A DNA stretch of 64,000 nt from a virus. The first letter of the stretch is position 1. Each line of letters starts with the position of its first letter. The notes beneath the pieces were generated by a model. That model ran no database searches. It was not told the DNA's origin and worked only from the letters and a program-made list of their open reading frames with translations. The DNA lies in IMG/VR virus record IMGVR_UViG_3300025120_010645, positions 2,385 to 66,384 of that record. One strand, given 5' to 3'. The position numbers and the translations under genes were made by a program. Positions 20,286 through 45,568 of this stretch are shown one piece after another.

Positions 20286-21599
20286 ATGGAAAGTTATAAA
20301 AAAGATAACAAAGTAACAGTAAAAACTAAATCAAAAATAAAGGTATTAGTTCACCCATCAGACAGAACAGGAGTTGGGTATTTTAGAAGTACTAAACCGC
20401 ATGTTACATTAGAAGAATTATACCCAGAAGAATTTCACATAGACATCGACTACACTCCAAGGTACAACGATGAAGGATGGCTTAAACAGTATGATATAAT
20501 TCACTACCATAGAACTTTTGGTCCATATGAAGAAATGGAAGAAACATTAAATAGATTGGATAAGTTAGGTATTGTTAGTTTCATGGATATAGATGACCAT
20601 TGGGCACCTGGACAACATCACCCAGCCTACACTATGATTAAAAATAGCGGTATGGATGTTAAAATTAAAAATAATATAAAATTAGCTAGAAACGTAATAA
20701 CAACTACTGACTTATTTGCGGACTTAATTAGAAAAACAAATCCAAATGTTTTTGTACTTCCGAACGCAATAGACCCAAAAGAATCTCAATATATTTCAAA
20801 AACAGAACCTTCAGACAGACTTAGAATAGGTTGGTTAGGAGGTTCATCTCACTTAAAAGACTTAGAGATACTTAAAGGTATATCTAGTAAATTAAAATAT
20901 GATGGACTAATAGACAAGGTACAATTTGTAATTTGCGGATTTGACCTAAGAGGTACAATTACAATGATTGACCAACAAACAGGAAATCAGACTCAAAGAC
21001 CAATCAAACCAAAGGAAAGTGTATGGTACCAGTATGAAAAAATATTTACAGACGACTACAACACAGTTAGTGAAGACTATAAAAACTTCTTACTTTCATT
21101 TAAAAAAGGAGAATATTCTGATGTAAAAAACGAACCATATAGAAGAGTTTGGACAAAACCTATTACCACATACGCTAGTAATTATAACTTATTCGATGTT
21201 TCTTTAGCGCCAATTGAAGAACACACCTTTAATAAGGTTAAATCTCAACTAAAGGTAATTGAAGCTGGTTTTCATAAAAAAGCTATGATAGCTCAAGACT
21301 ACGGACCATATCAAATCGACTTAATACCATACCTTAATAAAAGTAACGATAAAAAAATCCAAGAAAAAATTATCAACTCAGAAGGTAATGCGTTATTAGT
21401 TAAAACATCTAAAAACCACAAAGACTGGTATAAGAATATTAAAGCGTTAATAGAAAACCCAAGCATGGTTGAAGAACTAAGAAATAATTTACACAATACA
21501 GTTAAGGACACCTATAGTATAAATGCAGTTTGTAAAAGTAGAAAAGAATTATATGTTAATTCATTAATTAAAAAAGATATTTTAACTACTACCTTATAA
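20286..21599 (+). CDS. GT-B fold glycosyltransferase (GT4-like)
   Basis: DIDD, VLPNAID, RIGWLGGSSH..DL, DVSLAP...FNKVKSQLKVIEAG motifs. Confidence 0.8.
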   Translation: MESYKKDNKVTVKTKSKIKVLVHPSDRTGVGYFRSTKPHVTLEELYPEEFHIDIDYTPRYNDEGWLKQYDIIHYHRTFGPYEEMEETLNRLDKLGIVSFMDIDDHWAPGQHHPAYTMIKNSGMDVKIKNNIKLARNVITTTDLFADLIRKTNPNVFVLPNAIDPKESQYISKTEPSDRLRIGWLGGSSHLKDLEILKGISSKLKYDGLIDKVQFVICGFDLRGTITMIDQQTGNQTQRPIKPKESVWYQYEKIFTDDYNTVSEDYKNFLLSFKKGEYSDVKNEPYRRVWTKPITTYASNYNLFDVSLAPIEEHTFNKVKSQLKVIEAGFHKKAMIAQDYGPYQIDLIPYLNKSNDKKIQEKIINSEGNALLVKTSKNHKDWYKNIKALIENPSMVEELRNNLHNTVKDTYSINAVCKSRKELYVNSLIKKDILTTTL

Positions 21600-21615
21600 A
21601 ATAATATAATATTTT

Positions 21616-21647
21616 ATTGTTATTAAGTAATAAAATATGTACTTTTG
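21616..21647 (+). promoter_or_regulatory. Bacteroidota-type promoter ATTG-N20-TACTTTTG
   Basis: Upstream of the HD-like gene and dUTPase; implies the true start is ATG 21681. Confidence 0.6.
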
Positions 21648-21680
21648 AAATATATCATAAACTTAAAAAAAAGTAATAAT

Positions 21681-22235
21681 ATGTTAACAGAAGAAAAAAT
21701 TAAAAAAAACGTACAGAAATTTAACGAAACAGGTATTAAATATGGTGTTGTTAATAACGAATTAACAACACTACTTGGTATAGATTTTATTACCGCACCA
21801 TGTACTACCACAACAAAATTATATGGTGCCTATGAAGGCGGGTTAGTTCAACATATACTAAACGTGACCAAACACGCTATAATGATAAATAATTCTTTAC
21901 CTGAAAACAAACAAGTAAGTAAAGAAACTATTATTAGAGTATGCTTAATTCATCAAATAGGTAAAGTAAACATGTATTCGGAACAAACATCACAATGGCA
22001 CAAAGACAACAAGGGTGAAATGTATACATTTAATGAAGACTCTTTAAGTATGAGCACGTCTGAACGTTCAGTATTTTACGCTTTAAAATCAGGAATTAAT
22101 TTAACTGAAGATGAGGTTTACGCTATATTCAACTACAATAGTGATTTTGCTTATTGGTCATTAGATAAAGAAGGTGAGAAATTAGCGTCATTACTTAAAA
22201 CAGCTAATTTAATAGCAATAATTGAAGAAAAATAA
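21681..22235 (+). CDS. HD-domain-like (YhaM-type) protein with degenerate metal site
   Basis: AP...GAYEGGLVQHILNV and CLIHQIGK, where HD is replaced by HQ. Confidence 0.65.
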   Translation: MLTEEKIKKNVQKFNETGIKYGVVNNELTTLLGIDFITAPCTTTTKLYGAYEGGLVQHILNVTKHAIMINNSLPENKQVSKETIIRVCLIHQIGKVNMYSEQTSQWHKDNKGEMYTFNEDSLSMSTSERSVFYALKSGINLTEDEVYAIFNYNSDFAYWSLDKEGEKLASLLKTANLIAIIEEK

Positions 22236-22246
22236 AAGGACTACTT

Positions 22247-22873: not shown

Positions 22874-22879
22874 AGTTAT

Positions 22880-23026
22880 ATGTCAAAGGATAAAAAAATA
22901 AAGGAAAGTATAAAAAAAGTTGAGATTGAATTAGTTCACGAAGGTTATCTAGACGGCTGGCATATTAGATACTTAAAAGTTTTACTATATAAATTAAAAC
23001 GAAAATTAAATAGAAAAAATGATTAG
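22880..23026 (+). CDS. Small hypothetical protein (48 aa)
   Basis: MSKDKKIKESIKKVEIELVHEGYLDGWHIRYLKVLLYKLKRKLNRKND fills the gap exactly and overlaps the next start; below the ORF-track cutoff. Confidence 0.5.
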   Translation: MSKDKKIKESIKKVEIELVHEGYLDGWHIRYLKVLLYKLKRKLNRKND

Positions 23027-25605: not shown

Positions 25606-25606
25606 T

Positions 25607-26353: not shown

Positions 26354-26391
26354 TTTTATACACTAAAAACTTTTTTTTAAAAAAAAAGTGT

Positions 26392-26458: not shown

Positions 26459-27607
26459 ATGAAAAAAATATGGTACGCCCCTTATAAATTTGAGTCTTAC
26501 GGTGAGGAAGAAATTAAAGCAGTTGAAGAATGCTTAAGAGATGGTTGGCTAGGAGGTCAAGGTCCTAAATCAACAGAATTTGAAAAAAAGATAGCAAAAA
26601 GGTTTGGAAAAAAACATGGTATATTTGTAAATTCAGGCTCATCAGCATGTTTACTTGCGATAGCTGCACTAGACTTACCGAAAGGTTGTAAAATAATTAC
26701 ACCTGCATGTACATTTTCCACTACATTAGCACCAATAATTCAATTAGGCTATGAACCGCTATTTGTAGATGTCGGTCTAAACACATATTGCGCTGAAGTA
26801 GAAGAAATTATAGCCGTAGTTAATGATGATGTAAAAGCAATTATGTTACCAAATTTAATAGGTAATAAACCTAATTGGAAATTACTTAAATCTAGGTTAA
26901 TAGAAATTAACCGTGACGATATTCTTCTGATAGAAGACTCAGCTGACACCATAACAACTACTGATATTACAGACGTATCTACAACAAGCTTTTACGCATC
27001 TCACGTAATAACTGCAGGTGGTGTTGGAGGTATGGTTATGTTTAATAATAAAAAACATGTAACTAAATGTTTACAATATAGAGACTGGGGTAGACTAGGT
27101 AACGATTCTGAAATAGTTGATGAAAGATTTAGTCATACAGTGGATGGTATACCATATGACCATAAGTTTCTTTATAGTGTTCTTGGATATCACATGAAGT
27201 GCAGTGAAATGAACGCAGCGTTTGGGTTAGTACAATTAAATAGATTTAAAGATTTCTCAGAAACTAGAAGAAATAATTTTGAGAGATATCTTGAAAATCT
27301 AAAAGATTTACCCGAAATAATACTACCAGACGACTCTATAAAACCGAATTGGCTAGCAATACCTCTACAAACTAACGATAGACTTGGACTGCTTACTTAT
27401 TTAGAATCACAAGACATACAAACTAGGGTGACATTTGCTGGTAACGTTACAAGACACCCAATTTATAGAAAATATCTAAAACCATTTAAGAATTCAGACA
27501 CTATTATGAAAAATGGATTTTTACTAGGGGCACATCACGGGTTATCTATCGATGACGTTGATTACGTATGTGATAAAATAAAAGAATTTTTTAAAAGAAA
27601 TAGGTAA
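26459..27607 (+). CDS. DegT/DnrJ-family PLP enzyme, RfbH(E1)/ColD-type NDP-4-keto-6-deoxyhexose 3-dehydrase
   Basis: VNSGSSA, IEDSAD, SFYASH (His at the usual Lys position), RDWGR, YDHKFLYSVLGY. Confidence 0.85.
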   Translation: MKKIWYAPYKFESYGEEEIKAVEECLRDGWLGGQGPKSTEFEKKIAKRFGKKHGIFVNSGSSACLLAIAALDLPKGCKIITPACTFSTTLAPIIQLGYEPLFVDVGLNTYCAEVEEIIAVVNDDVKAIMLPNLIGNKPNWKLLKSRLIEINRDDILLIEDSADTITTTDITDVSTTSFYASHVITAGGVGGMVMFNNKKHVTKCLQYRDWGRLGNDSEIVDERFSHTVDGIPYDHKFLYSVLGYHMKCSEMNAAFGLVQLNRFKDFSETRRNNFERYLENLKDLPEIILPDDSIKPNWLAIPLQTNDRLGLLTYLESQDIQTRVTFAGNVTRHPIYRKYLKPFKNSDTIMKNGFLLGAHHGLSIDDVDYVCDKIKEFFKRNR

Positions 27608-27624: not shown

Positions 27625-28986
27625 ATGAAAGTATTAATTTTAGGTGACGGACTACTAGGCTCGGAAATACAAAAACAAACTGGATGGGATTATGTATCTA
27701 GAAAATCAAATAACTTAGACATCAACAACCTACTGGATTTACCCATAGGTTACGATGTCATAGTTAATTGTATAGCAAACACTAATACCTACTCAACAGA
27801 TAAAAAATCTCATTGGGATGTTAATTATAAATTTGTTAGTAAACTAATCGATTATTGTAATAAATCACAAATTAAAGTAGTACACATATCAACGGATTAT
27901 GTTTACGCTGGCTCTGTTAGTAATGCTTCAGAAGAAGACGTTCCAGTACACTGTAACAACTGGTACGGTTACACAAAACTACTAGGTGATGGGTTAGTTC
28001 AGTTACAATCAAACAACTACTTACTTTGTCGTTGCACTCATAAACCAAACCCTTTTCCTTACGATACAGCATGGATTGACCAAATCGGTAACTTTGATTA
28101 TGTTGATAAAATTAGTTCATTAATTATTGAATTAATTGAAAGTAAAAGTTTTGGGTTATATAATGTTGGTACTGAAACTAAAAGTATGTATGAGTTAGCT
28201 AATAAGACTAACAGTGTATCAAAAACATTCACACCAGAACACGTACCAAAGAATCAATCTATGGATATTTCTAAATTAGATAAAGTTATAAAACCTTTTT
28301 TTTCGATAGCAATACCTACGTATGGTTATAATGGTAAAGGTGCTGAATTTTTAGAATTCAGTTTAGATATTTTAACGAAACAAACATTTCAAGATTTTGA
28401 AGTAATTATTTCAGACCACAGTACTGATGATACAATTTTAGATATATTTACTAAATTTAAAGAACGTTTTAATTGTATCAAATATTTTAGAAATGATGTT
28501 GGTCGAGGAATCATATCCCCAAACATAAATAACGCAATGATAGAGTGTTCTGGTAAATATATAAAAGTTTTATTTCAAGACGATTTTTTATATGATAAAC
28601 ACTCACTACAAAATCAACATAATTTTATTATAAGTATACCGAATTTTAAATGGTTGATGACTAATTTCTACCATAGTAACACTGGTACTGATTTTTATAG
28701 GCCATACAACCCTGTTTGGAATTCAAAAATATGGACAGGTAATAACACTATGGGTTGCCCTAGTGGTATGACATTGAAAAATGAGGATTTACTTTTCTTT
28801 GATGAAGGTTTAAATTGGTTGATGGATGTTGATTATTATCAAAAGATGTTCATAAAACACGGTGAACCAAGTATCTTAGAAGAGATGACTGCGGTTAACC
28901 GAACTTGGGGTGCTAGGTTGACAGACACAATAGGACAAGACCTAAAAGATAAAGAATTTAAAATGTTATCAGAAAGATATGCTTAA
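27625..28986 (+). CDS. Fusion: RmlD-like NDP-sugar reductase + GT2 glycosyltransferase
   Basis: N-terminus GDGLLG, HISTDYVY, YGYTK; C-terminus SIAIPTY, ISDHSTD, LFQDD. Confidence 0.85.
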   Translation: MKVLILGDGLLGSEIQKQTGWDYVSRKSNNLDINNLLDLPIGYDVIVNCIANTNTYSTDKKSHWDVNYKFVSKLIDYCNKSQIKVVHISTDYVYAGSVSNASEEDVPVHCNNWYGYTKLLGDGLVQLQSNNYLLCRCTHKPNPFPYDTAWIDQIGNFDYVDKISSLIIELIESKSFGLYNVGTETKSMYELANKTNSVSKTFTPEHVPKNQSMDISKLDKVIKPFFSIAIPTYGYNGKGAEFLEFSLDILTKQTFQDFEVIISDHSTDDTILDIFTKFKERFNCIKYFRNDVGRGIISPNINNAMIECSGKYIKVLFQDDFLYDKHSLQNQHNFIISIPNFKWLMTNFYHSNTGTDFYRPYNPVWNSKIWTGNNTMGCPSGMTLKNEDLLFFDEGLNWLMDVDYYQKMFIKHGEPSILEEMTAVNRTWGARLTDTIGQDLKDKEFKMLSERYA

Positions 28987-30377: not shown

Positions 30378-30380
30378 AAT

Positions 30381-31130: not shown

Positions 31131-31132
31131 TT

Positions 31133-32041: not shown

Positions 32042-32064
32042 GAAACACAATATATACCCAAACT

Positions 32065-33591: not shown

Positions 33592-33601
33592 TATAAATAA
33601 T

Positions 33602-36164: not shown

Positions 36165-36167
36165 TAT

Positions 36168-37055
36168 ATGCCGATAGAACTGTATGGGTCAAGTGATAGA
36201 ATAGGCGGGAACATCATTGATATGATTGCCCAACTTACCTACGCACATAAGACCTCTAACTCTATACACTATAATAGGGAGAGATTAAGAGTTTACAATA
36301 CTTATAATCAAAATTATAATAAAACCATATTTATGGAGATGTTATTTGACCTTATAGATGTACACAACATATTGACTACTGAAGAGACTACGGATTGGAC
36401 GGACTTAGCCGCTCCGTCACACTTTGAAGTGTTAACAAAAACGTTATTAACGTTAGATATGGATATTATTTCGTACTTCAAAGGTAATAATATATACACC
36501 GATAAAATGAGAGCTTTGTTCTTAGAAAAAGGTAAAGCTAGAGGTTACGACATTCCTTTTAACCCTGAAAAAACTATACTTGTTCATCTTAGAATGGAAG
36601 ACGTAAAAGACAGAGGAGATTATGACGGGAGTGTTTGTGCTAACTATATGAGAGATAGAATTGAATCTGGAGACATACCAGGAACTGAAGTCCTAACTCC
36701 TACAGCAACCCCAGACCCATGGTGTCAAATGCAAGGACCGCTAGACGTAGACAAAGTTCAGAGACAAATTGATATTGCTATCAAAAAAAATCCTAACCAT
36801 GAAGTAATATTAATAACTAATCCAAATGAGGATACATCAAGACTACCCTATAGAGTTATTTCTAATCCCGACGAATGTTATGATTTATTCTTATTATGTA
36901 ATGCTAAGACATTAATACTATCAAGAAGCAATTTTGCGTTAGTATCATTATTCTTTGGAATAGGTGAGGAAGTATACACCCCACTTTGGGGACACTTACC
37001 ATGTTATGGACTTTATACTAAGTACGATGAATGTAAATTTAATTATTTTAAATAA
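36168..37055 (+). CDS. Fucosyltransferase-like GT-B protein (GT11-related)
   Basis: DRIGGNI, VHLRMED, DLFLL..A..LILSRSNF. Confidence 0.6.
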   Translation: MPIELYGSSDRIGGNIIDMIAQLTYAHKTSNSIHYNRERLRVYNTYNQNYNKTIFMEMLFDLIDVHNILTTEETTDWTDLAAPSHFEVLTKTLLTLDMDIISYFKGNNIYTDKMRALFLEKGKARGYDIPFNPEKTILVHLRMEDVKDRGDYDGSVCANYMRDRIESGDIPGTEVLTPTATPDPWCQMQGPLDVDKVQRQIDIAIKKNPNHEVILITNPNEDTSRLPYRVISNPDECYDLFLLCNAKTLILSRSNFALVSLFFGIGEEVYTPLWGHLPCYGLYTKYDECKFNYFK

Positions 37056-37966
37056 TGATAACAACAAACTTAACAGGAAACCTAGGAAATCACATGTGGC
37101 AATATGCTGTATGTAGGACTATCGCAGAAAAACTAGGTTACGAATGGGGAATAAACCCATCACCAAGTCATGACTATTTTAACGGTCAAAGTCAAATGAC
37201 ATTTATGAATGTAAATTTCGGAAAGGAAGTAGAGGGTATTAACAACGAATTTCATGAGAAGTGGGTAACCCATCAACATGTTGACGCAGTTAATATTACT
37301 ATGTTAAATAAATCTTTGTACGAGATTGCTGACAACAGTATTATGTTAGGTGACAAGGGAGCTAAGGGTGGTATATATCAATCAGAGGATTACCTTATTG
37401 ACAGAAAGGATGACATTAAGAAATGGTTTGAGATTAAGACTGAGTCAGCTGCTCATTATGATAAATTATTAGTTGACTACGGGGTTGTTCTTGATAAGGA
37501 TACGTGCGTCATCAACTTTAGAGGAGGTGAGTATAGGTCAATACCTAACGTTATATTAAAACCTGAATACTGGAAGAACGCAATAGAACACATGTTGGAA
37601 ATTAACCCTAATATGAAATTTGTTCTTATCACAGACGACCCACACACAGCGAATGCGTACATGCCATTTCCAATACAAACAATACACGTCGATGTAGGTT
37701 TTGATTTTTACGTAGTCAACAAAGCTAAATTTAATATTATATCAAATTCAACATTTGGGTGGTGGGCTGTGTGGTTAAATGAGGTGACAAATAAAATAAT
37801 AGCTCCGAAGTACTGGGCTAGACACAATGTTAGTGATGGCTACTGGGCAACTGGCGACGCATACACTAGAGGGTTTACCTACATGGACAGAGAGGGTAAC
37901 TTATCTGACTTCGACACCTGTAAATCTGAGGCTGAAAAATATTATAAAGAAAGAAATTTAATTTAA
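37055..37966 (+). CDS. Second GT11 alpha-1,2-fucosyltransferase-like protein
   Basis: GNLGNHMWQY, YQSE.Y, NFRGGEY, ITDD, NSTFGWW. Confidence 0.88.
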   Translation: MITTNLTGNLGNHMWQYAVCRTIAEKLGYEWGINPSPSHDYFNGQSQMTFMNVNFGKEVEGINNEFHEKWVTHQHVDAVNITMLNKSLYEIADNSIMLGDKGAKGGIYQSEDYLIDRKDDIKKWFEIKTESAAHYDKLLVDYGVVLDKDTCVINFRGGEYRSIPNVILKPEYWKNAIEHMLEINPNMKFVLITDDPHTANAYMPFPIQTIHVDVGFDFYVVNKAKFNIISNSTFGWWAVWLNEVTNKIIAPKYWARHNVSDGYWATGDAYTRGFTYMDREGNLSDFDTCKSEAEKYYKERNLI

Positions 37967-38833
37967 ATGAGAAAAATATACGACTGCTTCTGTTTTTTTA
38001 ATGAATTAGATTTATTAGAACTTAGATTAAACATATTAGGTGACTATGTGGATTACTTTGTAATCTCAGAATCATCAGTAACACATACTGGACAACCTAA
38101 ACCTTATTACTATGAGGAAAATAAAGAACGTTTCAGTAAGTGGAAAGATAAAATCATACATCTAAAGATTGAAGACACCCCTAATGATTTCTTAAACCTA
38201 CCATTAATTGATGATAGTAATAATTTTGACAATAGATGTGTATCACAAATACACAACTTTATTTGTACTCAAACAAACAGGTTTAATCGAGCTACTGAAA
38301 TACACTACGGTAGAGATTTTTACCAAAAAGAATGTATTAGAAGAGGTTTAGAACATTGTAACGATGAAGACATTATCATTTCTTCAGACTGTGACGAAAT
38401 ACCAAACCCAGAAGTACTTAAAAATATAGATAAAATACTTAACGCTGGAACTTATTTCACCCTTAACCAAGACACTTATTACTATTATTTAAACTTACTT
38501 AAGGAGCGCGAATGGAAAGGTTCTAGGATTGGACTTTATGCTGATTTAAAAGATTATTCGTACAATGAATTAAGAGGAAATTCAAACACCACAGTACCAA
38601 ATGGTGGGTGGCACTTTAGTTTTATGGGTGGACCTGAAAAAGTTAAAACTAAAATAAATTCATATTCAGCTCAAGAAATGAACAATACCCACGTAATTAA
38701 TAGTATTGAGTCAAATATAAAAAATGGTATTGACCCATTCTTTAGAGGAAATTTAACTAAAGTAAATATTGACTCATCTTATCCAGAATACTTAGTAAAA
38801 AATATTAACAAGTATAAACATATGATTAAATAA
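37967..38833 (+). CDS. GT17 (GnT-III-like) glycosyltransferase
   Basis: IYDCFCFFNELDLLELRL, ES..THTG.PKP, SDCDEIP, GGWHFSF. Confidence 0.9.
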   Translation: MRKIYDCFCFFNELDLLELRLNILGDYVDYFVISESSVTHTGQPKPYYYEENKERFSKWKDKIIHLKIEDTPNDFLNLPLIDDSNNFDNRCVSQIHNFICTQTNRFNRATEIHYGRDFYQKECIRRGLEHCNDEDIIISSDCDEIPNPEVLKNIDKILNAGTYFTLNQDTYYYYLNLLKEREWKGSRIGLYADLKDYSYNELRGNSNTTVPNGGWHFSFMGGPEKVKTKINSYSAQEMNNTHVINSIESNIKNGIDPFFRGNLTKVNIDSSYPEYLVKNINKYKHMIK

Positions 38834-38870: not shown

Positions 38871-38879
38871 TAAACAACT

Positions 38880-39875
38880 ATGAGTAAAACGGCATTAATC
38901 ACTGGTATAAACGGACAAGACGGTAGCTATTTAGCTGAACTTTTAATTGAGAAAGGTTATGAAGTTTGGGGGACTGTAAAAAGAAATTCAGTATCTGAAA
39001 CACAAACTAGTAGAATCGAACACCTACGACAAAAAAAGTTAATAAACCTAGAATACGCTGACTTAACCGACATGGCATCACTAATTAGAGTGTTAAGTAA
39101 ATTACAACCAGACGAAATATATAACCTAGCCGCACAATCTCATGTTAGAGTTAGTTTCGACCAACCAGTATACACAGCCAATGTAACAGGTATTGGGACA
39201 CTAAATCTATTAGAATCTATCAGAATGGTATCACCTAATTCAAAGGTATATCAAGCATCATCTTCAGAAATGTTTGGAAACAACATCGATAAAGACGGTT
39301 ATCAAAGAGAAACAACACCCATGACACCAGTATCACCATACGGATGCGCTAAAGTATTTTCTTATAATATTTGCAATAATTACCGTAATTCATATAATAT
39401 GAAAATATGGAACGGAATACTATTTAATCATGAATCACCTAGAAGGGGAACTAATTTTGTTACTAATAAAGTAGTAAAGGGTGCAGTAAGAATTAAATTA
39501 GGGTTACAAAATGAATTACACTTAGGTAATTTAGAAGCTACTAGAGACTGGGGACACGCTAAAGATTACTGTGAAGCAATGTGGCTTATGTTGCAAACTG
39601 ACGAACCAGGTGACTATGTATGCTCTACAGGGGTTTCACATTCTGTTAGAGATTTATGTTTTTACACATTTAAAAAATTAGGATTAAAATGGCAAGAACA
39701 TATCAAAATTGACTCAAAATTCCTAAGACCAGAAGAGTTAAAAGACTTAAAAGGTGACTCAAGTAAACTTAGAAATAAAGTAGGGTGGAAACCTAAATAT
39801 ACTTTTGAAACTATGCTTGACGAAATGGTTGAATATTGGTTAGAATATTATAAAGTTAAAAAAGAATTAATTTAA
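38880..39875 (+). CDS. gmd: GDP-mannose 4,6-dehydratase
   Basis: ALITGINGQDGSYLAE, LAAQSHVRVSF, QASSSEMFG, SPYGCAK, NHESPRRG, RDWGHAKDY. Confidence 0.97.
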   Translation: MSKTALITGINGQDGSYLAELLIEKGYEVWGTVKRNSVSETQTSRIEHLRQKKLINLEYADLTDMASLIRVLSKLQPDEIYNLAAQSHVRVSFDQPVYTANVTGIGTLNLLESIRMVSPNSKVYQASSSEMFGNNIDKDGYQRETTPMTPVSPYGCAKVFSYNICNNYRNSYNMKIWNGILFNHESPRRGTNFVTNKVVKGAVRIKLGLQNELHLGNLEATRDWGHAKDYCEAMWLMLQTDEPGDYVCSTGVSHSVRDLCFYTFKKLGLKWQEHIKIDSKFLRPEELKDLKGDSSKLRNKVGWKPKYTFETMLDEMVEYWLEYYKVKKELI

Positions 39876-40783
39876 TGGATAGAATTTTAGTTACTGGTGG
39901 AGATGGTCTTGTTGGTTCACAATTCAAAGGTGGGGATTATCAAAAAATAAACTCAAAAGATTATAACTTAATAAACCAAAGAGAAACCTACCATATAATA
40001 AAAAGAGATTGGGACGCAGTGATACACACTGCAGCTAAAGTTGGAGGTTTAGGTGAAAACATGGTAAAAAAAGGTGAGTTTTTTTATCAAAACATAATGA
40101 TGAATACAAATGTTATAGAATCATGTAGGATATCTGAAGTTAAAAACTTAGTTGTATTCCTATCTACCTGTGTGTTTCCAGATAATATAGAATATCCACT
40201 AACTGAAGATAAAATTCATCTAGGTCCACCTCACCCTAGTAATGACGCTTACGCATACTCAAAGAGAATGGCAGAAGTTCAAATAAGAGCGTATAGAGAA
40301 CAATACGGTTTAAATTATAAATCTGTAATACCAACAAACATATACGGACCAAATGATAACTTTAATATTGCAAACGGACACGTAGTACCAAGCTTAATAC
40401 ACAAGTGCTTTATAGCTAGAGAAACTAACTCAGATTTTGAAGTATGGGGTAGCGGTAAGCCTCTTAGAGAGTTTATTTTCAATAAAGATGTTGCTGAATT
40501 AACTAGATGGGTTTTAGAAAACTATGATGAAGACGAACCTATTATATTGTCAACTTCAGAAGAAATTTCAATAAAAGACTTGGTAGATATAATTACAAGT
40601 GAAATGAACTATAAAGGTAACGTTAAATGGCTTTCAGATAAACCAGATGGGCAATTAAGAAAACCAAGTGATAATAAAAAAATTAAAAACTATTTACCAA
40701 ATTACAAATTCACACCAATTGAAATTGGTATAAGAGAAACCGTTAAATGGTTTGAAGAAAAATACCCTAATATTAGAAAATAA
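39875..40783 (+). CDS. fcl: GDP-L-fucose synthase (Fcl/WcaG/ColC-type epimerase-reductase)
   Basis: TGGDGLVGS, AAKVGG, STCVFP, YAYSKR, PTNIYGPNDNF, WGSGKPLREF, KPDGQ. Confidence 0.95.
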   Translation: MDRILVTGGDGLVGSQFKGGDYQKINSKDYNLINQRETYHIIKRDWDAVIHTAAKVGGLGENMVKKGEFFYQNIMMNTNVIESCRISEVKNLVVFLSTCVFPDNIEYPLTEDKIHLGPPHPSNDAYAYSKRMAEVQIRAYREQYGLNYKSVIPTNIYGPNDNFNIANGHVVPSLIHKCFIARETNSDFEVWGSGKPLREFIFNKDVAELTRWVLENYDEDEPIILSTSEEISIKDLVDIITSEMNYKGNVKWLSDKPDGQLRKPSDNKKIKNYLPNYKFTPIEIGIRETVKWFEEKYPNIRK

Positions 40784-41769
40784 TGATAAAATGGTTTAAA
40801 AAAAATTTAGCAGCTTTTTCTTTAGCTATGTCTAGTGTAGAGAAAAACACACTAACTCAGGACGGGTTAACATTTGACATAGGGGAACGTGAGGAACAAA
40901 GTTATAAAAAAGGCACATTGGAATATGCCTTAGTAAATGGTGAGGTAACACAGGAAGTTAAAGACCTCAGATGGCGAATGTACAAAATGTTAAAAACTTC
41001 AGAAGGTTTAACTACTATAATAGTTGGTTACGATGATGACGGATTACCAATTACCGAAACAATTAAAACTAGTAAAAGCGCTGACAGGAGAAAATTAGAA
41101 AAAATAAAACTAGATTCCGAAGACAACTACCCTTTAGAAATGGTCCAAAGTAATCTACCAATAGTTATGGGTGCAGCAGAAGCTGGATTAAACGGTAATA
41201 TTACAGGGTATACTGACGAAGAAATAATAAACAAAACTAACACTAGTGGAAAATACACTGATTCAAATTACGAATCAGGCACAACATTAGGTGAAATAAA
41301 CAATAATGATTATAATTCGTTTATTAAATCAGAAAGACCAGTTAAAATTACTAGAGAGTTCAAACCAAAGTTTGAGATAGAACAATTTACAAAAAAATTA
41401 AATATAAGAGCTATTGATGATGAGAATAAATTATTAGAATTTTACATTAGTATATATCCTGATAAATATGATAGAAAAACAAATCTATTATTATCAGAAA
41501 TAAAAAGAGCTATTAAAAACCCAAGAGGAACTAGCATTTTAGATGTTAATAAAGTAAATTTTATTACTTATAAAACTATGGGTAGTAAAGATTTTTACGA
41601 ATACGAATATGATGTATTATCATTTGATAAAATAGTTAAATTTGATGGTTTTTATGTTATTAAATTTAAATGTAAAGCAATTTTAAATGGAAGATATTTA
41701 TTAGAAGAATATAGAGAAGTTGAGTTAGATAAAAAATATAAAAACAAAGAAAGAAAACACATTAAATGA
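40783..41769 (+). CDS. Hypothetical protein
   Basis: 328-aa ORF translationally coupled to fcl and phoH. Confidence 0.75.
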   Translation: MIKWFKKNLAAFSLAMSSVEKNTLTQDGLTFDIGEREEQSYKKGTLEYALVNGEVTQEVKDLRWRMYKMLKTSEGLTTIIVGYDDDGLPITETIKTSKSADRRKLEKIKLDSEDNYPLEMVQSNLPIVMGAAEAGLNGNITGYTDEEIINKTNTSGKYTDSNYESGTTLGEINNNDYNSFIKSERPVKITREFKPKFEIEQFTKKLNIRAIDDENKLLEFYISIYPDKYDRKTNLLLSEIKRAIKNPRGTSILDVNKVNFITYKTMGSKDFYEYEYDVLSFDKIVKFDGFYVIKFKCKAILNGRYLLEEYREVELDKKYKNKERKHIK

Positions 41770-42578
41770 AAATTAAAACTAAAAATGTGACCAATGAAGA
41801 CTTCGAAGAAATTCAAGACTACATGGATAAAAAAAATAAAAATAAAAAGAACATGACTAGAAACCCTATTAATGAATTCACAAACTCTTACAGTGTAAGA
41901 GACTTCACATGTAAGTCTGAAAATCAAAAAAAGATTATAAAGTCCATATGTAATAAAGACACCATTATAACAGTAGTTCATGGCCAAGCTGGTACGGGTA
42001 AAACATTTTCTGCAATACAAGGAATGTTAAAACAATTTAAATCAGCTTATAAATCAGGTGAAGGGTATAATAAAATATATTTATTAAAATCAGTTAAGAC
42101 CCTTGACAATAAGTCAGAAGATATTGGGTTTTTAAAAGGTACAATGGAAGAAAAAATTGCACCATTTATGTTTTCATATGACTTTAACTTTGCTCAAATC
42201 GTAGATAAAGTAGCGTATGGGGTAGCTAGAGAAACACAACTTATAGAATTCTTACCATTAGCCTATATAAGAGGTATTGGACTAAGTGATTGTATTATTA
42301 TACTAGATGAAGCTCAAAATGTAAATAATTCAATACTAAGAACCGTATTGTCTCGAATAGGAAAAAACTGTAAATTAATAATACTTGGTGACACTAAACA
42401 AAAAGACAGTTCAAACGGACATACGTCTGGATTAAATTTAATGGTAAAACATTTTGGTGGAATTAAAGGAATAGACTTTATCGAAATGGGTCCAGAAGAC
42501 CAATCAAGAGCTAACATAATTAGCGTTATTGAAGACAAATATGATGACCTTGAAAACCAAGGAATAAATATAAGTTAA
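41766..42578 (+). CDS. phoH: PhoH-family ATPase
   Basis: GQAGTGKT, IGFLKG, PLAYIRG, ILDEAQN, LSRIG, LGD.KQ.D. Confidence 0.93.
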   Translation: MKIKTKNVTNEDFEEIQDYMDKKNKNKKNMTRNPINEFTNSYSVRDFTCKSENQKKIIKSICNKDTIITVVHGQAGTGKTFSAIQGMLKQFKSAYKSGEGYNKIYLLKSVKTLDNKSEDIGFLKGTMEEKIAPFMFSYDFNFAQIVDKVAYGVARETQLIEFLPLAYIRGIGLSDCIIILDEAQNVNNSILRTVLSRIGKNCKLIILGDTKQKDSSNGHTSGLNLMVKHFGGIKGIDFIEMGPEDQSRANIISVIEDKYDDLENQGINIS

Positions 42579-42601
42579 TTATTATTTTTTTATATATATA
42601 G

Positions 42602-42629
42602 TTTACTTTATCAGTATCTAACTTATAAT
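42602..42629 (+). promoter_or_regulatory. Sigma70-like promoter TTTACT-N16-TATAAT
   Basis: Immediately upstream of ATG 42637. Confidence 0.55.
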
Positions 42630-42636
42630 TGTTATT

Positions 42637-43248
42637 ATGAGAATAGGTATTACACTTGATGAAGTATTAAGAGACACGTTAACACAATTTTTATACACGT
42701 ATGAAAAATACTATAACGTTGAAACAGATTTAAAAATCGATGACATAACATCTAAAAACTTTAGTGATTTTGTAGACTTTAAGTCTTTAGATGATATGAA
42801 TAAGTTTCTATACGAAGAAGCTTCATTAGAAATTTTTGGACATGCAGACCAAAAACTCAATAATCTAATGAGTAAATTCAACACCTTTTTAATTGATATT
42901 AAAGATGAAGAAGAGCACTCAATAGAAATAATCTCAAGGGAGATACACAGTAGTATCCCATCAAGCCTATTCTTTTTATCTAAATTGTCATGTAGGGCTG
43001 AAAACATAAGGTTTGTTCAAGACCATGAAAAATACTGGGAAGGTATCGATATTCTAGTTACCGCAGACCCAAAAGCCTTAGACACTAAACCAGACGATAA
43101 ATTATCAGTTAAAATAAAGGCACCATATAACAGTGGTTCCTCAGCTGATTTTGAACTGGAGTCAATATTACCATTTATTCGTTATGAAAGTTTAAGAGAT
43201 AAAATTTTAAATACAAAAATAACAAATTACGAAAATATAGAAGAATAA
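42637..43248 (+). CDS. HAD-fold 5'(3')-deoxyribonucleotidase-like protein, degenerate motif I
   Basis: MRIGITLDEVLRD (canonical pattern IGIDxDGVLxD), IISR, APYN. Confidence 0.65.
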   Translation: MRIGITLDEVLRDTLTQFLYTYEKYYNVETDLKIDDITSKNFSDFVDFKSLDDMNKFLYEEASLEIFGHADQKLNNLMSKFNTFLIDIKDEEEHSIEIISREIHSSIPSSLFFLSKLSCRAENIRFVQDHEKYWEGIDILVTADPKALDTKPDDKLSVKIKAPYNSGSSADFELESILPFIRYESLRDKILNTKITNYENIEE

Positions 43249-43249
43249 T

Positions 43250-43603
43250 ATGATTGAAATTGGAGGAGTAGAATACTACATAGACCTTGACAACCTTGAC
43301 AAGGTAATAATAAGCAAAACAAATAAAGGTAAAACCGTTATAGAAACTGAAACAAAAACTATTGTTGACAGTGATGGTAAAATAATAAGTACCGAAATAA
43401 TCGAAAGAGCGTCTGAACGTCATAGAGAAATAAACATGGCTAAATATGAAACAATAAGAGCACTTATCGAAATTATATTAACAACAATGGATGAAATTGA
43501 CGATGAATTAGGTATTGATAGAGCATTAGGTGATTTACCATTACCATTTAAATTAAGCTTTAACACACTAATTGGTCACGGAATAATAAGTGAAAGAAAA
43601 TAA
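43250..43603 (+). CDS. Hypothetical protein
   Basis: 117-aa ORF within the operon. Confidence 0.7.
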   Translation: MIEIGGVEYYIDLDNLDKVIISKTNKGKTVIETETKTIVDSDGKIISTEIIERASERHREINMAKYETIRALIEIILTTMDEIDDELGIDRALGDLPLPFKLSFNTLIGHGIISERK

Positions 43604-43625
43604 TAAATAATAAATTAAATTAAAT

Positions 43626-44744
43626 ATGGAAGAAAAAGAAAAAGTAGAAAAAGAACTTGTTGAAGGTATTTTAACAAAGTTAGATAATAAAGATTTTGGG
43701 TTATATTTTTTTACCCTAGACACTAAAGGTAATCCAGCTGCTGGTATCGCCAATATATATGAGCATGTTAAACTATTAACTGAATTAGGTCATACAGCGT
43801 ACATTTTACATGAAAAAAATGATTACAAATTAAGAGGTGACGCAGAAGGTATGGGGGTAGCAGATTGGCTAGGTGAGGAATATGCAAAACTACCTCATAT
43901 TTCAATTGAAAGTCAGGGCATTCAAATTAAACCTGAAGACTTTCTAATTGTTCCAGAGATTTTTTCAAACGTTATGGACCAAGCTAAAAAATTTCCATGT
44001 AAAAAAATAGTCTTATCACAAAATTATGATTATTTACTTGAATTATTACCACTTGGTAGAAGATGGTCTGATTACGGTTTTAACGATGTAATAACAACGA
44101 GTCAAAAACAGGCAGATTACGTAACCTCACTTTTTCCTTCAACTAGAAGTAAAGTAATTCCTGTTAGTATTCCTGAATATTTCAAACCATCTGATAAACC
44201 AAAAATACCAGTAGTATCTATATCAGCAAGAGAACAGGGTACTGCAGCTAAGATAGCAAAGATGTTTTATTTACAATACCCACTTTACAAATGGATTACT
44301 TTTAAAGAACTAAAAGGTTTAAGTAGAAAAGATTTTGCTGAAGACTTAGGTAAATCTTGTTTAAGTGTATGGATAGATGACCAGTCTGGTTTTGGTACAT
44401 TCCCACTAGAAGCTATGGAGTCTAACACACCTATAATTGGTAAAATGCCGAATATGATTCCAGAATGGATGGAAGATGTCAATGAGGAAGGGCAAGCTGC
44501 AATAAAAAATAACGGAATCTGGACAAACACACATCTAAATATACCTGAATTAATCGCAACATATTTAAAAGTTTGGCTTGAAGACTCAGTACCTCAAGAC
44601 TTACTTGATGGTATTGAAGAAAGTAAGGGTAAATACACTTCTAGTAACCAAAAAACAATACTAGAAGAAGTATATACCTCACTAATTCAAGACAGAAAAG
44701 ATGAATTAAATAACACTATTAAAGTATTAGAAAATCAAAAATAA
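43626..44744 (+). CDS. GT-B (GT4-like) glycosyltransferase
   Basis: GIANIYEHV..L...G, IVPE, SGFGTFPLEAM. Confidence 0.75.
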   Translation: MEEKEKVEKELVEGILTKLDNKDFGLYFFTLDTKGNPAAGIANIYEHVKLLTELGHTAYILHEKNDYKLRGDAEGMGVADWLGEEYAKLPHISIESQGIQIKPEDFLIVPEIFSNVMDQAKKFPCKKIVLSQNYDYLLELLPLGRRWSDYGFNDVITTSQKQADYVTSLFPSTRSKVIPVSIPEYFKPSDKPKIPVVSISAREQGTAAKIAKMFYLQYPLYKWITFKELKGLSRKDFAEDLGKSCLSVWIDDQSGFGTFPLEAMESNTPIIGKMPNMIPEWMEDVNEEGQAAIKNNGIWTNTHLNIPELIATYLKVWLEDSVPQDLLDGIEESKGKYTSSNQKTILEEVYTSLIQDRKDELNNTIKVLENQK

Positions 44745-44749
44745 TTTAT

Positions 44750-45568
44750 ATGGACAAGAATAAAAAAATAAAAACAGACATAAGTGTAGTTTTACCTATT
44801 CATGAATTAAATAATGAAAAAGAGGTTGCACTGTTTAAAACAGCAATTGAAAGTGTTGTAAATCAAGAATCAAAACCAGAAGAACTACTAATTGTAGTTC
44901 CAATCGGTTCAAAAGTAGAAGAAACTATGAAAACTTTTGACTTTGGTGAGGCAAAAGACATCGTAAAAGTTGTTGTTAATCCAGATGGAGCTGGTTTTCA
45001 AGCTCAAATTAATTACGGAGTAAGCCAAGTAAAAAGCAAATGGTTCAGTTTTTTAGAATTTGATGATGAGTATTCAAATAAGTGGTTTAAGAATGTTGTT
45101 GAGTACAGAGAAGCTCACACAGATGTTGAAATGTTTATGCCCATCATCGTTGATACAGACTCTAACAGTGGAGCCTTTATGGGGTTGACTAATGAAGCTG
45201 TTTGGGCCAATTCATTTTCAGATGAATTAGGTATACTTGACGAAAACGGATTATTAACATTTCAAAACTTCAACATAGACGGTCTTGTTATGCAGAAAGA
45301 AGCATTTGACAACTGGGGTGGTTTTAAGAAAAATATAAAACTAACCTTTATTTATGAATTCTTATTAAGAATGGTAACTAATGGGGTTAAATCCATGGTA
45401 ATTCCTAGATTTGGTTACAAACACCAAAACAAAAGAGAGGGTTCTTTATTCGAACAATATGCAAACGAAATGGACACACTAGAAGCTAAATGGTGGTTAG
45501 ACCAAGCTAAAAAAGAATATTTCCATAAAAAAGAACGAGACATAAGCTACGACAAAAGTATATCTTAA
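44750..45568 (+). CDS. GT2 glycosyltransferase
   Basis: ISVVLPIH, AIESV.NQ, QINYG, FLEFDD, GGF, EFLLR. Confidence 0.85.
   Translation: MDKNKKIKTDISVVLPIHELNNEKEVALFKTAIESVVNQESKPEELLIVVPIGSKVEETMKTFDFGEAKDIVKVVVNPDGAGFQAQINYGVSQVKSKWFSFLEFDDEYSNKWFKNVVEYREAHTDVEMFMPIIVDTDSNSGAFMGLTNEAVWANSFSDELGILDENGLLTFQNFNIDGLVMQKEAFDNWGGFKKNIKLTFIYEFLLRMVTNGVKSMVIPRFGYKHQNKREGSLFEQYANEMDTLEAKWWLDQAKKEYFHKKERDISYDKSIS

Follow-up and report, generated by a model that had tools for sequence, protein, structure and literature searches.

A conserved, cassette-variable island of soluble glycan-building enzymes in a large uncultured T4-like phage

Our analysis of a 64-kb window of viral DNA (the whole stretch of 64,000 nucleotides) suggests that positions 20286-45568 form a conserved, cassette-variable gene set for the assembly of a glycan in the cytoplasm, and we tentatively propose virion proteins as its most likely acceptor. 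The contig comes from a distant, uncultured, large T4-like phage (Gp23, Portal_T4, the S77 protease and PolB were all found on it), within a widespread clade of uncultured T4-like jumbo phages. The island spans about 25 kb and contains 29 ORFs, all on the + strand, that overlap or are separated by short gaps. Pfam and PHROG typing, together with a scan for membrane segments, confirm what the initial annotation had described, a soluble glycan-building locus in a T4-like phage: set against its 15-17 or so glycosyltransferase-like genes, we count 13 supported and two probable ones within the island, a GT25 gene outside adding one more, and the NDP-sugar enzymes and the methyltransferase it listed were matched as well (Gmd, an Fcl-like and a Gmd-like SDR, an RmlD-like part, an RfbH/ColD-type enzyme and TylF). 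Four of the 29 ORFs are not glycan genes (HD phosphohydrolase, dUTPase, PhoH and an NT5C-like protein) and five have no functional call. Clusters of this kind have been described before in large marine phages and in T4-like cyanophages; the one described here is new and unusually large.

The premise that the locus encodes no multi-pass membrane protein now stands on a broader base. A Kyte-Doolittle scan of the 29 island ORFs found zero transmembrane helices, two borderline hydrophobic segments lying inside the DegT and PhoH folds. In the same scan, ORFs with at least six transmembrane segments appeared in none of 40 related viral loci (887 ORFs) versus 14 of 25 bacterial loci with GT17 homologues (458 ORFs), a contrast with a nominal Fisher p of 7e-8 between loci that are not independent. 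Also, none of the 502 ORFs of a complete 345-kb relative (G002) has five or more such segments, and the Bac_transf phosphoglycosyltransferase was found in zero of five relatives, with a control that was positive in 9 of 14 genomes. Neither a flippase nor a phosphoglycosyltransferase was found in the island, the 40 related viral loci or the complete relative.

Synteny across related phages had been pointed to as a check on the locus, and the island is indeed collinear in relatives of the clade (G001, G002, G004 and further loci), of which it is a fixed syntenic feature. The transferases at its ends are about as well conserved as portal and polymerase: identity to G002 is 63% for the leftmost gene, U1, and 65% and 54% for the GT-B and GT2 of the right end, compared with 70% for MCP, 60% for portal and 55% for PolB. 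In G001 the three transferases share 70%, 71% and 60%, and U1 still has 54% in G004. The middle 10-19 kb exchanges cassettes between phages, and GT17 homologues reach 67% identity among viral copies and at most 41% to any bacterial one.

Immediately 5' of the island, an intrinsic-terminator-like hairpin (20189..20208, +) with 8 base pairs in its stem and a T-run ends the upstream unit; just one other strong terminator lies on the + strand in 17000-56000. The island opens with U1 (20286..21599, +), a conserved core GT-B (GT4-like) glycosyltransferase (PHROG 7162, 5.8e-40) whose predicted structure has a GT-B/GT4-like fold (AF2 pLDDT 75), with PglA (2e-9), GlgM, MshA and BshA (about 1e-9) as Foldseek neighbours; it has more than 7716 homologues, the best 120 of which are at 64-95% identity. 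Two nucleotide genes of the conserved left flank, which are not glycan enzymes, adjoin it here and in G001, G002 and G004, namely an HD phosphohydrolase (21645-22235, +) and a dUTPase (22247-22873, +). The conserved pair of the left end consists of a GT2_5 glycosyltransferase (23019-24107, +; PF13712, 4.5e-29) and a partner ORF (24104-24895, +), which are also split in G001 and G004 and are fused as one ORF of 620-621 aa in two other loci (L024 and L029); the version in G002 has 551 aa and joins GT2_5 to Glyco_transf_4.

Further in, always on the + strand, lie a GT2 (24871-25605; PF00535, 3.5e-16) and a GT11 fucosyltransferase-family protein (25607-26353; PF01531, 9.4e-27; PHROG 2644, 9.8e-50). 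The ORF at 26459..27607 (DegT, 3.5e-69) is typed as a ColD/E1-type PMP-dependent NDP-4-keto-6-deoxyhexose 3-dehydratase: RfbH is its top NCBIfam match (259 bits, cut-off 423), it matches E1 (3bcx, 1e-56) and ColD (2gms, 1.8e-38) in the PDB, and it carries a His aligned to E1 His220 and lacks the Cys-rich Fe-S segment of E1. It is followed by a fusion (27625..28986) of an RmlD-like SDR N-terminal part (PF04321, residues 1-137) to a GT2 (PF00535, residues 227-370), with full-length homologues in relatives at 54-68% identity, and by a DUF5672 protein (28979..29650; PF18922, 4.5e-10) with homologues in 47 of 140 loci. The AF2 model of the latter (pLDDT 91.9, pTM 0.90) predicts a GT-A transferase with a GT6-like fold, similar to blood-group transferases, and its Foldseek matches include BoGT6a (4cj8, 2e-6, TM 0.5-0.6), alpha-1,3-GalT and human GTA/GTB. 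A variable cassette (29595..32775) then holds a GT32-type DXD transferase (29595; 3.9e-9), a PHROG 'galactosyl transferase' match (30381; 3.2e-25), an ORF (31133) with zero matches in a PDB sequence search and a DUF3431 protein (32065; 1.4e-7), which is a candidate GT. Downstream are a TylF-family sugar O-methyltransferase (32833..33591; PF05711, 5e-71), a GT2_4/GT92-like transferase (33548-34375; 2.6e-13), an ORF probably at 34377-35147, whose family profile had zero matches in the PDB, a Gmd-like SDR (35166-36164; a Gmd paralogue, phmmer 4.8e-40) and an ORF without functional call (36168-37055). A weakly matched GT11-like gene (37055; Pfam 1.6e-6; PHROG 2644, 1.4e-26) and a GT17-like gene (37967; 1.5e-28) form a pair (37055..38833), and such genes are neighbours in the majority of the long GT17-anchored viral loci that we mapped and in Synechococcus phages RB11-B and RN05-S; some viral loci have tandem GT17 copies, or no GT11-like match beside the anchor. 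The following pair (38880..40783) is made of Gmd, GDP-mannose 4,6-dehydratase (38880; PF16363, 9e-124; TIGR01472, 401.8 bits, cut-off 415), and a GDP-fucose-synthase-like (Fcl-like) SDR (39875; Fcl model, 218.6 bits, cut-off 500).

The right flank (40783..43603, +) is conserved in synteny and comprises an ORF at 40783, PhoH (41766), an NT5C-like gene (42637) and an ORF at 43250, to which we assign no glycan role. The core pair that closes the island (43626..45568, +), found in all 10 collinear MCP loci that extend this far, is formed by a GT-B (43626), whose profile A1 matches AmGGT (PDB 8xsg) at 2e-17 with the next match at 0.13, and a GT2 (44750; PF00535, 9.5e-10). The first gene past the island, a non-glycan gene at 45570..46313 (+), is a probable, weakly matched gp55-like late sigma factor by sequence: its profile A2 hits SigA region 2 at 0.017 and T4 gp55 at 0.63, and in hhalign it aligns to T4 gp55 across 102 columns with E 0.0034. 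Beyond it (46327..46334, +), 17 nt 5' of gene 46351, stands the first post-island copy of ATATTTAT, which we infer to be a late-type promoter motif of the clade. This motif is enriched (35 copies observed versus 18.9 +/- 3.6 expected), is kept upstream of 35 of 38 homologues of gene 49968 and 46 of 61 protease homologues, and is seen in only 2 of 320 regions upstream of island genes versus 110 of 191 upstream of structural genes. Another copy (17685-17692, -) lies upstream of the GT25-family glycosyltransferase outside the island (13397..14557, -; PF01755, 3.9e-14; PHROG 2835). This gene, missing from G001 and G002, sits amid two large S/T-rich putative fibre-like genes, and its neighbour at 11688-13394 is similar to phage ConA/Laminin_G_3 proteins in the Atlas.

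Virion proteins as the acceptor are supported by the soluble-only nature of the island, its clade-wide synteny and the core-like conservation of its end transferases, by the number of U1 homologues and the closeness of the GT17 copies to viral rather than bacterial ones, and by the position of the GT25 gene between fibre-like genes, 3' of a late-type motif. The kinship of the conserved GT-B points the same way: AmGGT, its nearest solved relative, is in one family with ApAgt, which is soluble and extends the glucose of adhesins N-glycosylated in the cytoplasm. An analogy is offered by PBCV-1, which encodes GMD and GMER along with methyltransferases for sugars and early-expressed transferases that are for the most part soluble (PMC9614988); since these transferases are likewise early, the lack of late-type motifs in the island is neutral for virion glycosylation. 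We recognised no transferase that would initiate protein glycosylation (GT41/NGT in zero of five relatives and none in the 64-kb window), none of the structural proteins has S/T-rich tails like those of glycosylated mycobacteriophages, and none of our literature searches turned up a T4-like phage with reported virion glycosylation.

The initial annotation had gone from soluble enzymes to a cytoplasmic, virion acceptor; its premise stands and virion proteins remain the leading candidate by a narrow margin, but solubility does not force the acceptor. O-antigen, capsule and LOS transferases are soluble or peripheral, without transmembrane helices, and their substrates are Und-PP- or lipid A-linked acceptors on the inner side of the membrane. 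Soluble transferases being the norm for lipid-linked glycans, the missing membrane genes are compatible with a host acceptor, and the remaining export steps could be carried out by host PGT, Wzx/MsbA and ligase. It is possible, if somewhat doubtful, that the phage transferases extend a host lipid-linked acceptor (Und-PP-sugar, lipid A-core) on the cytoplasmic side of the inner membrane, and that the flippase/MsbA, ligase and export machinery of the host would place the glycan on the cell surface. GT2, GT11, GT25, GT32/Caps_synth and the RfbH/ColD 3-dehydratase belong to the usual repertoire of LPS, LOS and capsule loci, and the multi-pass membrane proteins beside bacterial GT17 homologues indicate surface-polysaccharide-type contexts; however, the phages encode zero initiating transferase, flippase, polymerase or ligase, even in the complete genome of G002. 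Likewise, cassette exchange resembles O-antigen diversity, but the cassette genes pass among phages, and the end transferases behave as core genes and not as sporadic accessories. The early expression suggested by the absence of late-type motifs is compatible with a host-envelope role, although the gain for a strictly lytic T4-like phage seems uncertain and we know of no demonstrated case in which a phage makes a host glycan de novo by means of soluble transferases. Such a role matches the published interpretation of homologous clusters, those of T4-like cyanophages and jumbo phages being read as host-surface genes in three reports (PMC12801897, PMC9602691, PMC7824862).

We consider it very unlikely that the island makes a free or secreted oligosaccharide or a glycolipid, or glycosylates host or non-virion phage proteins during takeover. 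Its enzymes are all soluble, as this would have it, and AmGGT extends free glucosides in vitro, but specific pointers toward such a product number zero and a clade-conserved investment of 25 kb seems ill-suited to a by-product; the short TcdA/TcdB-type DXD match in one ORF (PF12919, 7.9e-7, 25 residues) is limited to the generic DXD region, where Gly_transf_sug matches better. DNA hypermodification, initially ranked as the main alternative, appears the most improbable of all. Here some or all transferases would add sugars to modified phage DNA bases against restriction, in T-even style, with the conserved GT-Bs as best candidates. Early-type expression is compatible with this, and so is gene order, as U1 adjoins the HD phosphohydrolase and dUTPase, and the second conserved GT-B lies near the NT5C-like and PhoH genes and adjoins the gp55-like sigma gene, T4 a-gt being near gene 55 and b-gt beside gene 42. 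However, while the T4 DNA glucosyltransferases are likewise GT-B and a BFVD neighbour of U1 (rank 11, TM 0.50) is named 'DNA alpha-glucosyltransferase', hhalign comparisons with T4 a-gt/b-gt show no relationship (E 0.44, 0.05, 0.23; 16-28 columns), and profiles A1 and A3 match zero DNA glucosyltransferases in the PDB. Moreover, the single ThyA of G002 (314.8 bits, DHFR nearby) shows canonical TS motifs, with the uracil-type Asn in PFNIAS, and this relative is therefore without the hmC signature; a Tet_JBP search, run without positive control, was empty. We know of no DNA glycan approaching one built with 15 transferases, GDP-fucose, a dideoxyhexose and O-methylation.

Under the virion-protein proposal that we favour, island transcription would precede that of the late genes, as one unit with the gp55-like sigma gene. 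Judging from the family assignments, phage Gmd would convert host GDP-mannose to GDP-4-keto-6-deoxymannose, the Fcl-like reductase would then make GDP-L-fucose, and the ColD-type 3-dehydratase with a reductase would yield a colitose-type 3,6-dideoxyhexose. A branched oligosaccharide would be assembled by some 15 soluble transferases, which represent 10 or more unrelated GT-A/GT-B families, and would be methylated by the TylF O-methyltransferase; together, the GT11 and GT6-like proteins suggest a motif that is fucosylated and resembles blood-group antigens. The conserved transferases at both island ends would build a common inner part of the glycan and the swappable middle cassettes a strain-specific outer part. 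Virion proteins would then receive the glycan in the cytoplasm, either ahead of assembly or in its course, much as happens in chloroviruses, mimiviruses and certain mycobacteriophages. Were the glycan instead placed on the host envelope, superinfection would be blocked, or progeny would be kept off infected cells and debris.

The island between 20286 and 45568 consists of 29 tightly packed ORFs, all on the + strand and named here by their start coordinates, which divide into 13 supported glycosyltransferases (GTs), two probable ones, five sugar-nucleotide or tailoring enzymes, five unknowns and four non-glycan genes (HD, dUTPase, PhoH and NT5C-like). The inventory of GT, NDP-sugar and TylF genes drawn up in the initial annotation is backed by Pfam, NCBIfam and PHROG scans, which recognize GT2_5, three plain GT2 domains, GT17, a GT32-type DXD enzyme, GT2_4/GT92, DUF5672 and DUF3431 among the transferases. 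Two GT11 paralogues (phmmer 1.9e-15) are also present, and ORF 30381 matches a PHROG 'galactosyl transferase'. The SDRs are Gmd (401.8 bits, slightly below the NCBIfam equivalog cut-off of 415), an Fcl-like SDR, a second Gmd-like SDR and an RmlD-like part fused to a GT2, and they are accompanied by an RfbH/ColD-type enzyme at 26459 and a TylF methyltransferase (5e-71). The two probable GTs are the DUF3431 protein and 24104. In the window the latter (24104-24895) shares 4 nt with the preceding GT2_5 gene (23019-24107); the two are likewise separate in the relative genomes G001 and G004 but fused into one ORF of 620-621 aa in two related viral loci, L024 (1948-3813) and L029 (1727-3589), so that both split and fused forms occur.

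Structural comparisons give some of these enzymes a more precise placement. The product of 20286 (U1) is predicted to have a GT-B fold (AF2 pLDDT 75), with PglA, GlgM, MshA and BshA as Foldseek neighbors and only generic GT-B neighbors in a BFVD fold search. The family profile of the GT-B at 43626 matches one solved GT-B specifically, AmGGT (8xsg, 2e-17; next PDB match 0.13), and the DUF5672 protein yields a confident GT-A model (pLDDT 91.9) whose best neighbors are GT6 blood-group-type transferases (BoGT6a, 2e-6). PDB sequence searches returned no usable match for 20286, its profile, 40783, 31133, 14560 or the 34377 family profile, and 40783 gave no result against Atlas. A GT9-like N-terminal motif considered for 34377 is unsupported.

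The nearest 3-dehydrases to 26459 are E1 (1e-56) and ColD (1.8e-38). The enzyme has a His at the position of the PLP lysine of aminotransferases, aligned with His220 of E1, and misses the Cys-rich Fe-S segment of E1. Because Gmd occurs together with this ColD-type enzyme, the pair suggests a route from GDP-4-keto-6-deoxymannose to a 3,6-dideoxyhexose, beside GDP-fucose. ORF 39875 scores 218.6 bits against the Fcl model (cut-off 500), and ColC and Fcl are not separable from sequence alone. A Pfam scan found no sugar-1-phosphate nucleotidyltransferase in the window; the pathway would therefore draw on GDP-mannose supplied by the host and used by the phage Gmd pathway. In the island of G002, a complete 345-kb relative genome, a UDP-GlcNAc 2-epimerase, a HAD-nucleotidyltransferase fusion and an FkbM methyltransferase (L156:10599-13988, - strand) replace the GDP-fucose genes, so its sugar chemistry differs; its other transferases differ as well, and a weak GT-D-like match (E 8.5e-4) falls below the cut-off.

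The initial annotation had seen no multi-pass membrane protein among these genes, and a Kyte-Doolittle hydropathy scan, used here rather than a trained predictor, leaves every island ORF without a transmembrane (TM) helix; two segments are borderline and fall in the DegT and PhoH folds. The soluble-only feature of the island is real. With the identical scan, an ORF with at least six TM segments was found in 14 of 25 bacterial loci with a GT17 homologue (at least 14 kb each) versus none of 40 related viral loci, a contrast with a nominal Fisher p of 7e-8 that, the loci being related, is not a true probability. The same holds at the scale of a whole genome: G002 is complete (345,454 bases, with terminal repeats), collinear with the whole window, and none of its 502 ORFs has five or more TM segments. 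No flippase, polymerase, ligase or ABC transporter of the Wzx/Wzy or ABC type was found in the island or in G002, and the Bac_transf phosphoglycosyltransferase PF02397 is missing from the window and from the records of five relatives (the control was found in 9 of 14 known genomes). As for the set used by temperate phages in serotype conversion, the island has no GtrA or GT-C Pfam match and no TM protein.

The window covers 64 kb of a single viral contig of 66,384 bases with a G+C content of about 31% throughout. Its T4-like character, claimed from the start, is confirmed by a Gp23-type major capsid protein (MCP; PF07068, 3.8e-74), a gp20-type portal (PF07230, 1.8e-72) and a gp21-type (S77) prohead protease (PF03420, 8e-28), head genes that are also matched in PHROG, together with a family-B DNA polymerase and an SNF2 helicase. 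Judging from these genes, the source is a distant T4-like (Straboviridae-related) myovirus. Among named phages, the best MCP matches are Microcystis phage Mel-JY01 (42.5% identity), the Flavobacterium 'immuto' phages (39%) and Rhodothermus phage RM378 (33.5%). Against deposited phages, megablast gave zero nucleotide matches to the island and tblastn none to 49968 or 43626. A search for tRNA genes found none. The possibility that the island is a mis-assembled host segment, which would have overturned the first interpretation, can be put aside: GC is even (0.28-0.35 in the island versus 0.27-0.36 in the whole window), and this gene order is found again in numerous independent viral contigs, one of them the complete genome with terminal repeats.

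Some features of the surrounding genome deserve a word of their own. The MCP (54122-55945, - strand) has 607 aa and, since its best Gp23 stretch covers only residues 337-596, much of its N-terminal half may be extra or strongly diverged sequence; a second stretch is also matched. Inside the head-morphogenesis module, between portal and protease, lies a PAS_3 protein (59041-59604, - strand; PF08447, 1.1e-13), which is unusual for a phage head block. One gene (46351) past the sigma-like gene that follows the island, 46746-48230 (+ strand) belongs to a conserved family of 470-650 aa proteins (for instance L024:16369-18327) with one to three hydrophobic segments towards the C-terminal part, and the ORFs with at least two TM-like segments in the syntenic loci are its homologues (L017, L024, L025, L027, L036, L037 and L041). 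This protein may be a tape-measure or ejection protein.

Relatives of this phage are numerous. Viral contigs contain at least 598 relatives of the MCP; in the 80 loci retained, identity reaches 78%, and the contigs are as long as 363 kb. The GT17-like gene has 60 viral relatives and U1 more than 7716 homologues at E ≤1e-5. The comparison with related jumbo phages proposed at the outset reveals the same gene order throughout the clade: U1, HD, dUTPase and GT2_5 at the left end, then a variable middle, and PhoH, NT5C-like, 43250, GT-B (43626), GT2 (44750) and sigma at the right end, beyond which lie the capsid gene and late-type genes. In conservation the end transferases roughly equal core phage genes, as their identities to G002 (63% for U1, 65% for the GT-B and 54% for the GT2) compare with 70% for the capsid, 60% for the portal and 55% for the polymerase. 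The distance between dUTPase and PhoH, on the other hand, varies from 18.9 kb in the window to 14.7 kb in G004, 11.8 kb in G002 and 10.4 kb in G001.

That phages exchange cassettes is indicated by several results. Genes of a cassette may be more similar than its flanks: in G004 the DUF3431 and Gmd proteins are 78% and 73% identical to those of the window, versus 45% for sigma and 37% for the core GT-B. Recombination breakpoints can be located within the island in two pairs of viral loci. In L021 and L023 the sequences flanking a replaced segment (2.0 kb versus 3.3 kb; Gmd and Fcl lie on it in L021) are 85.5-86.2% identical, and identity between L037 and L040 drops from 97% in the island's left 10.9 kb to 74% further right. 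Bacterial homologues of GT17 are at most 41% identical and spread over many phyla, and these genes have therefore long resided in phages. In the more distant viral contigs L050, L052, L054 and L060, two or three GT17-like genes stand in tandem.

The regulatory signals would place the island apart from the late genes. The motif ATATTTAT occurs 35 times in the window versus 18.9 ± 3.6 in shuffled sequences, none of 100 shuffles reaching 35. It is found in sense, 5-20 nt upstream of the protease and scaffold genes and of 59608, 53801, 53546, 14560, 11188, 3228, 6014, 17731, 46351, 49968 and 51405, with examples at 58132-58139 (-), 57371-57378 (-), 49947-49954 (+), 46327-46334 (+), 17685-17692 (-) and 17707-17714 (+). 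In relatives it lies at most 45 nt upstream of 35 of 38 homologues of 49968, 46 of 61 of the protease and 10 of 23 of 46351, versus only 2 of 320 distinct upstream regions of island genes and the sigma gene together. From its position and conservation, ATATTTAT is probably the late promoter of the clade, unlike the TATAAATA of T4, which is not enriched (27 versus 21.25 ± 4.74 expected) and is absent upstream of the MCP and portal genes. A generic sigma-70 scan did not rise above chance (122 versus 103 ± 10 and 100 versus 94 ± 8), so that the impression of TATAAT-like -10 boxes before 20286, 26459, 38880 and 42637 is unsupported. A strong terminator precedes the island (20189-20208), and the next strong one on the + strand is at 53256-53283. 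We infer that the island is a pre-late unit reading through into the sigma-like gene that directly follows it (45570-46313, + strand), which is not a glycan gene. The profile of this last family gives weak matches to SigA (0.017) and gp55 (0.63), and hhalign against T4 gp55 is weak too (E 0.0034, probability 9.5%, residues 52-154); it is probably, on this slender resemblance, a gp55-like late sigma factor. The timing of the island does not discriminate between acceptors, because the transferases that glycosylate the capsid of PBCV-1 are early too, T4 DNA glucosyltransferases are expressed early, and any host-surface function would be early as well.

Outside the island, a further transferase of the GT25 family (13397-14557, - strand) sits between two large S/T-rich, putatively fibre-like proteins. 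It lies directly downstream (2-nt gap) of 14560-17667, which encodes an S/T-rich protein of 1035 residues behind a late-type motif, and just upstream of 11688-13394, whose Atlas neighbors are phage ConA/Laminin_G_3 proteins. Neither G001 nor G002 has a homologue of GT25, and the 1035-aa neighbor is matched in part (209 aa) in G002 and not at all in G001, so GT25 and its neighbors look like a variable module. A scan of 66 window proteins, structural proteins included, found no S/T-rich C-terminal acceptor tails, the S/T-rich stretches being internal and in fibre-like proteins.

Big marine T4-like phages have long been known to carry large glycan clusters, which the literature consulted classes as 'LPS' or 'cell-wall' accessory genes, and the island is a larger example of this known kind of cluster, in a different, uncultured clade. 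In the cyanomyoviruses P-SSM2, S-SCSM1, S-SCSM2R and S-B05/RB11-B, as in the 'capsular polysaccharide modification systems' of jumbo phages, contiguous GTs of several families are likewise combined with NDP-sugar SDRs, a DegT-type enzyme and methyltransferases in a T4-like myovirus. According to the portions available of PMC12801897, PMC9602691 and PMC7824862, S-SCSM1 carries Gmd and Fcl, and polymorphic clusters that draw on eight or more transferase families were recorded in a jumbo-phage survey; those portions report no acceptor test for the cyanophage clusters. The cluster of RB11-B (~18 kb) contains adjacent GT17 and fucosyltransferase genes, DegT, several GT2, GT11, GT25 and six SDRs, with membrane export genes not annotated, as in the island. 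By tblastn our GT17 is 35% identical to that of five Synechococcus phages (S-B05, S-B43, S-H68, RB11-B and RN05-S), and in RB11-B and RN05-S its neighbor is a fucosyltransferase. The clade studied here is nonetheless a different one, with MCPs only 33.5-42.5% identical to those of its best named matches and a GT17 with only 35% identity to the cyanophage copy. The island has 13-15 transferases plus GT25, against the 13 that the accessible part of the cited literature calls possibly the highest number in a marine phage. Its content varies between related phages like that of the cyanophage clusters; in contrast to them, it has a fixed position between dUTPase and PhoH/sigma, and its end transferases are conserved core genes.

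Other systems, too, invite comparison with the island. The chlorovirus/Mimiviridae type combines soluble transferases, NDP-sugar synthesis and a sugar methyltransferase, all of which the island matches, but these are giant viruses of eukaryotes whose glycans have been demonstrated on capsid or fibril proteins, whereas the glycan of our phage is a predicted one. As described in the part of PMC9614988 available, PBCV-1 has mostly soluble cytoplasmic transferases, a GDP-mannose dehydratase, a GDP-fucose synthase, sugar O-methyltransferases and early expression, and giant viruses carry large glycogene clusters such as the 38-kb one of CroV; that account also gives PBCV-1 two multi-pass membrane transferases, while this clade has none. 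Mycobacteriophages modify their own capsid and tail-tube proteins with their own soluble transferases (Freeman et al. 2023, as cited in the accessible text of PMC12619734), although in what is available on these systems the transferases are few (one paper reports two) and the glycans sit on C-terminal tails; the island has about 15 transferases and sugar-nucleotide synthesis, with no such S/T-rich tails on structural proteins. Bacterial O-antigen, LOS and capsule loci, including the GDP-colitose pathway (Gmd, ColD and ColC), share the transferase families and the mosaic cassette build of the island, and also Gmd with a ColD-type enzyme whose PLP lysine is replaced by His and which has no Fe-S cysteines. 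Unlike them, the island has no initiating phosphoglycosyltransferase, flippase, polymerase, ligase or ABC transporter and resides in a lytic phage genome.

We tentatively favor virion proteins as the acceptor of the glycan, with a confidence that stays somewhat short of even. This reading would fit the lack of a membrane step anywhere in the clade, the core-gene status of the end transferases, the circulation of cassettes among phages, the GT25 gene beside fibre-like genes behind a late-type motif, and the close parallel with the glycosylation gene sets of giant viruses. It would also be consistent with the specific relationship of core GT-B 43626 to AmGGT, a homologue of the chain-extending ApAgt of the NGT/Agt system (Actinobacillus, Haemophilus), both of which are soluble and lengthen glycans on proteins glycosylated in the cytoplasm or on free glucosides. 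Three observations count against it: no initiating protein transferase was found, that of the NGT/Agt system, GT41 (HMW1C/NGT-type, PF13844), being absent from the window and five relatives (the control was found in 2 of 14 genomes), structural proteins have no S/T-rich acceptor tail, and the literature searched holds no direct report of virion glycosylation in T4-like phages or cyanophages. The initial annotation had reasoned from a soluble-only gene set to a virion acceptor; the gene set is indeed soluble-only, but the step to the acceptor is just partly supported, since the transferases of lipid-linked pathways are soluble in any case. A phosphoglycosyltransferase, a flippase or MsbA, and a ligase of the host could finish such a route, and a glycan of the host envelope, which is how the homologous cyanophage clusters are read in the available portions of PMC12801897, PMC9602691 and PMC7824862, is a possible acceptor that we regard as doubtful yet worth serious consideration.

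DNA had been named as the main alternative, a place that the host envelope now takes. The sole support for DNA is the position of the island beside nucleotide genes and near the sigma gene, like a-gt in T4; T-even DNA glucosylation likewise relies on early soluble GT-B enzymes beside nucleotide genes, near gene 55. However, hhalign against a-gt (GT72) and b-gt (GT63) gives E values of 0.44, 0.05 and 0.23 over short stretches, that is, no homology. The signature of a dCMP hydroxymethylase, looked for in relatives as the window is without a ThyA gene, is lacking too: the ThyA of G002 is canonical (Asn in PFNIAS, 314.8 bits), with DHFR nearby. A Tet_JBP search, run without a positive control, was blank. 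Moreover, the enzyme set is very large and diverse, with far more enzymes and sugar types than DNA needs, and we consider DNA a very improbable acceptor. Some other cytoplasmic product is scarcely better placed, and we deem it improbable as well; a small remainder of the odds goes to no named acceptor.

Taking virion proteins as the acceptor, the glycan would be assembled wholly in the cytoplasm and would coat the phage's own virions, its inner part being built by the core transferases, conserved about as portal and polymerase are, and its outer part by the cassettes that recombine between phages. That a very abundant, uncultured clade of T4-like jumbo phages bears such a complex, cytoplasmically assembled fucose/dideoxyhexose/O-methyl coat, with a core inner and a cassette outer part, is a more detailed proposal, which we hold with some hesitation and a little less firmly than the choice of acceptor itself.

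What is new here is the architecture of core flanks and swappable cassettes, the quantified contrast with bacterial loci, the inferred pre-late regulatory class and the residue-level ColD assignment. Glycan clusters can be a fixed, core-flanked and cassette-swapping trait of a whole abundant clade, in which phages systematically omit every membrane step found in bacterial loci with the same enzymes and in which the cluster genes circulate among phages rather than being recent borrowings from hosts. If the acceptor were the host surface, no lytic phage would be known to remodel that surface more elaborately. If the virion coat proposed here is true, it would amount to a system of 'glycotypes' in viruses, comparable to the O-serotypes of bacteria, and the T4 lineage would have its first known case of virion glycosylation. 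The glycan coats of giant viruses and mycobacteriophages would then extend to that lineage, and the stability, adsorption and recognition of phages at sea would need rethinking.
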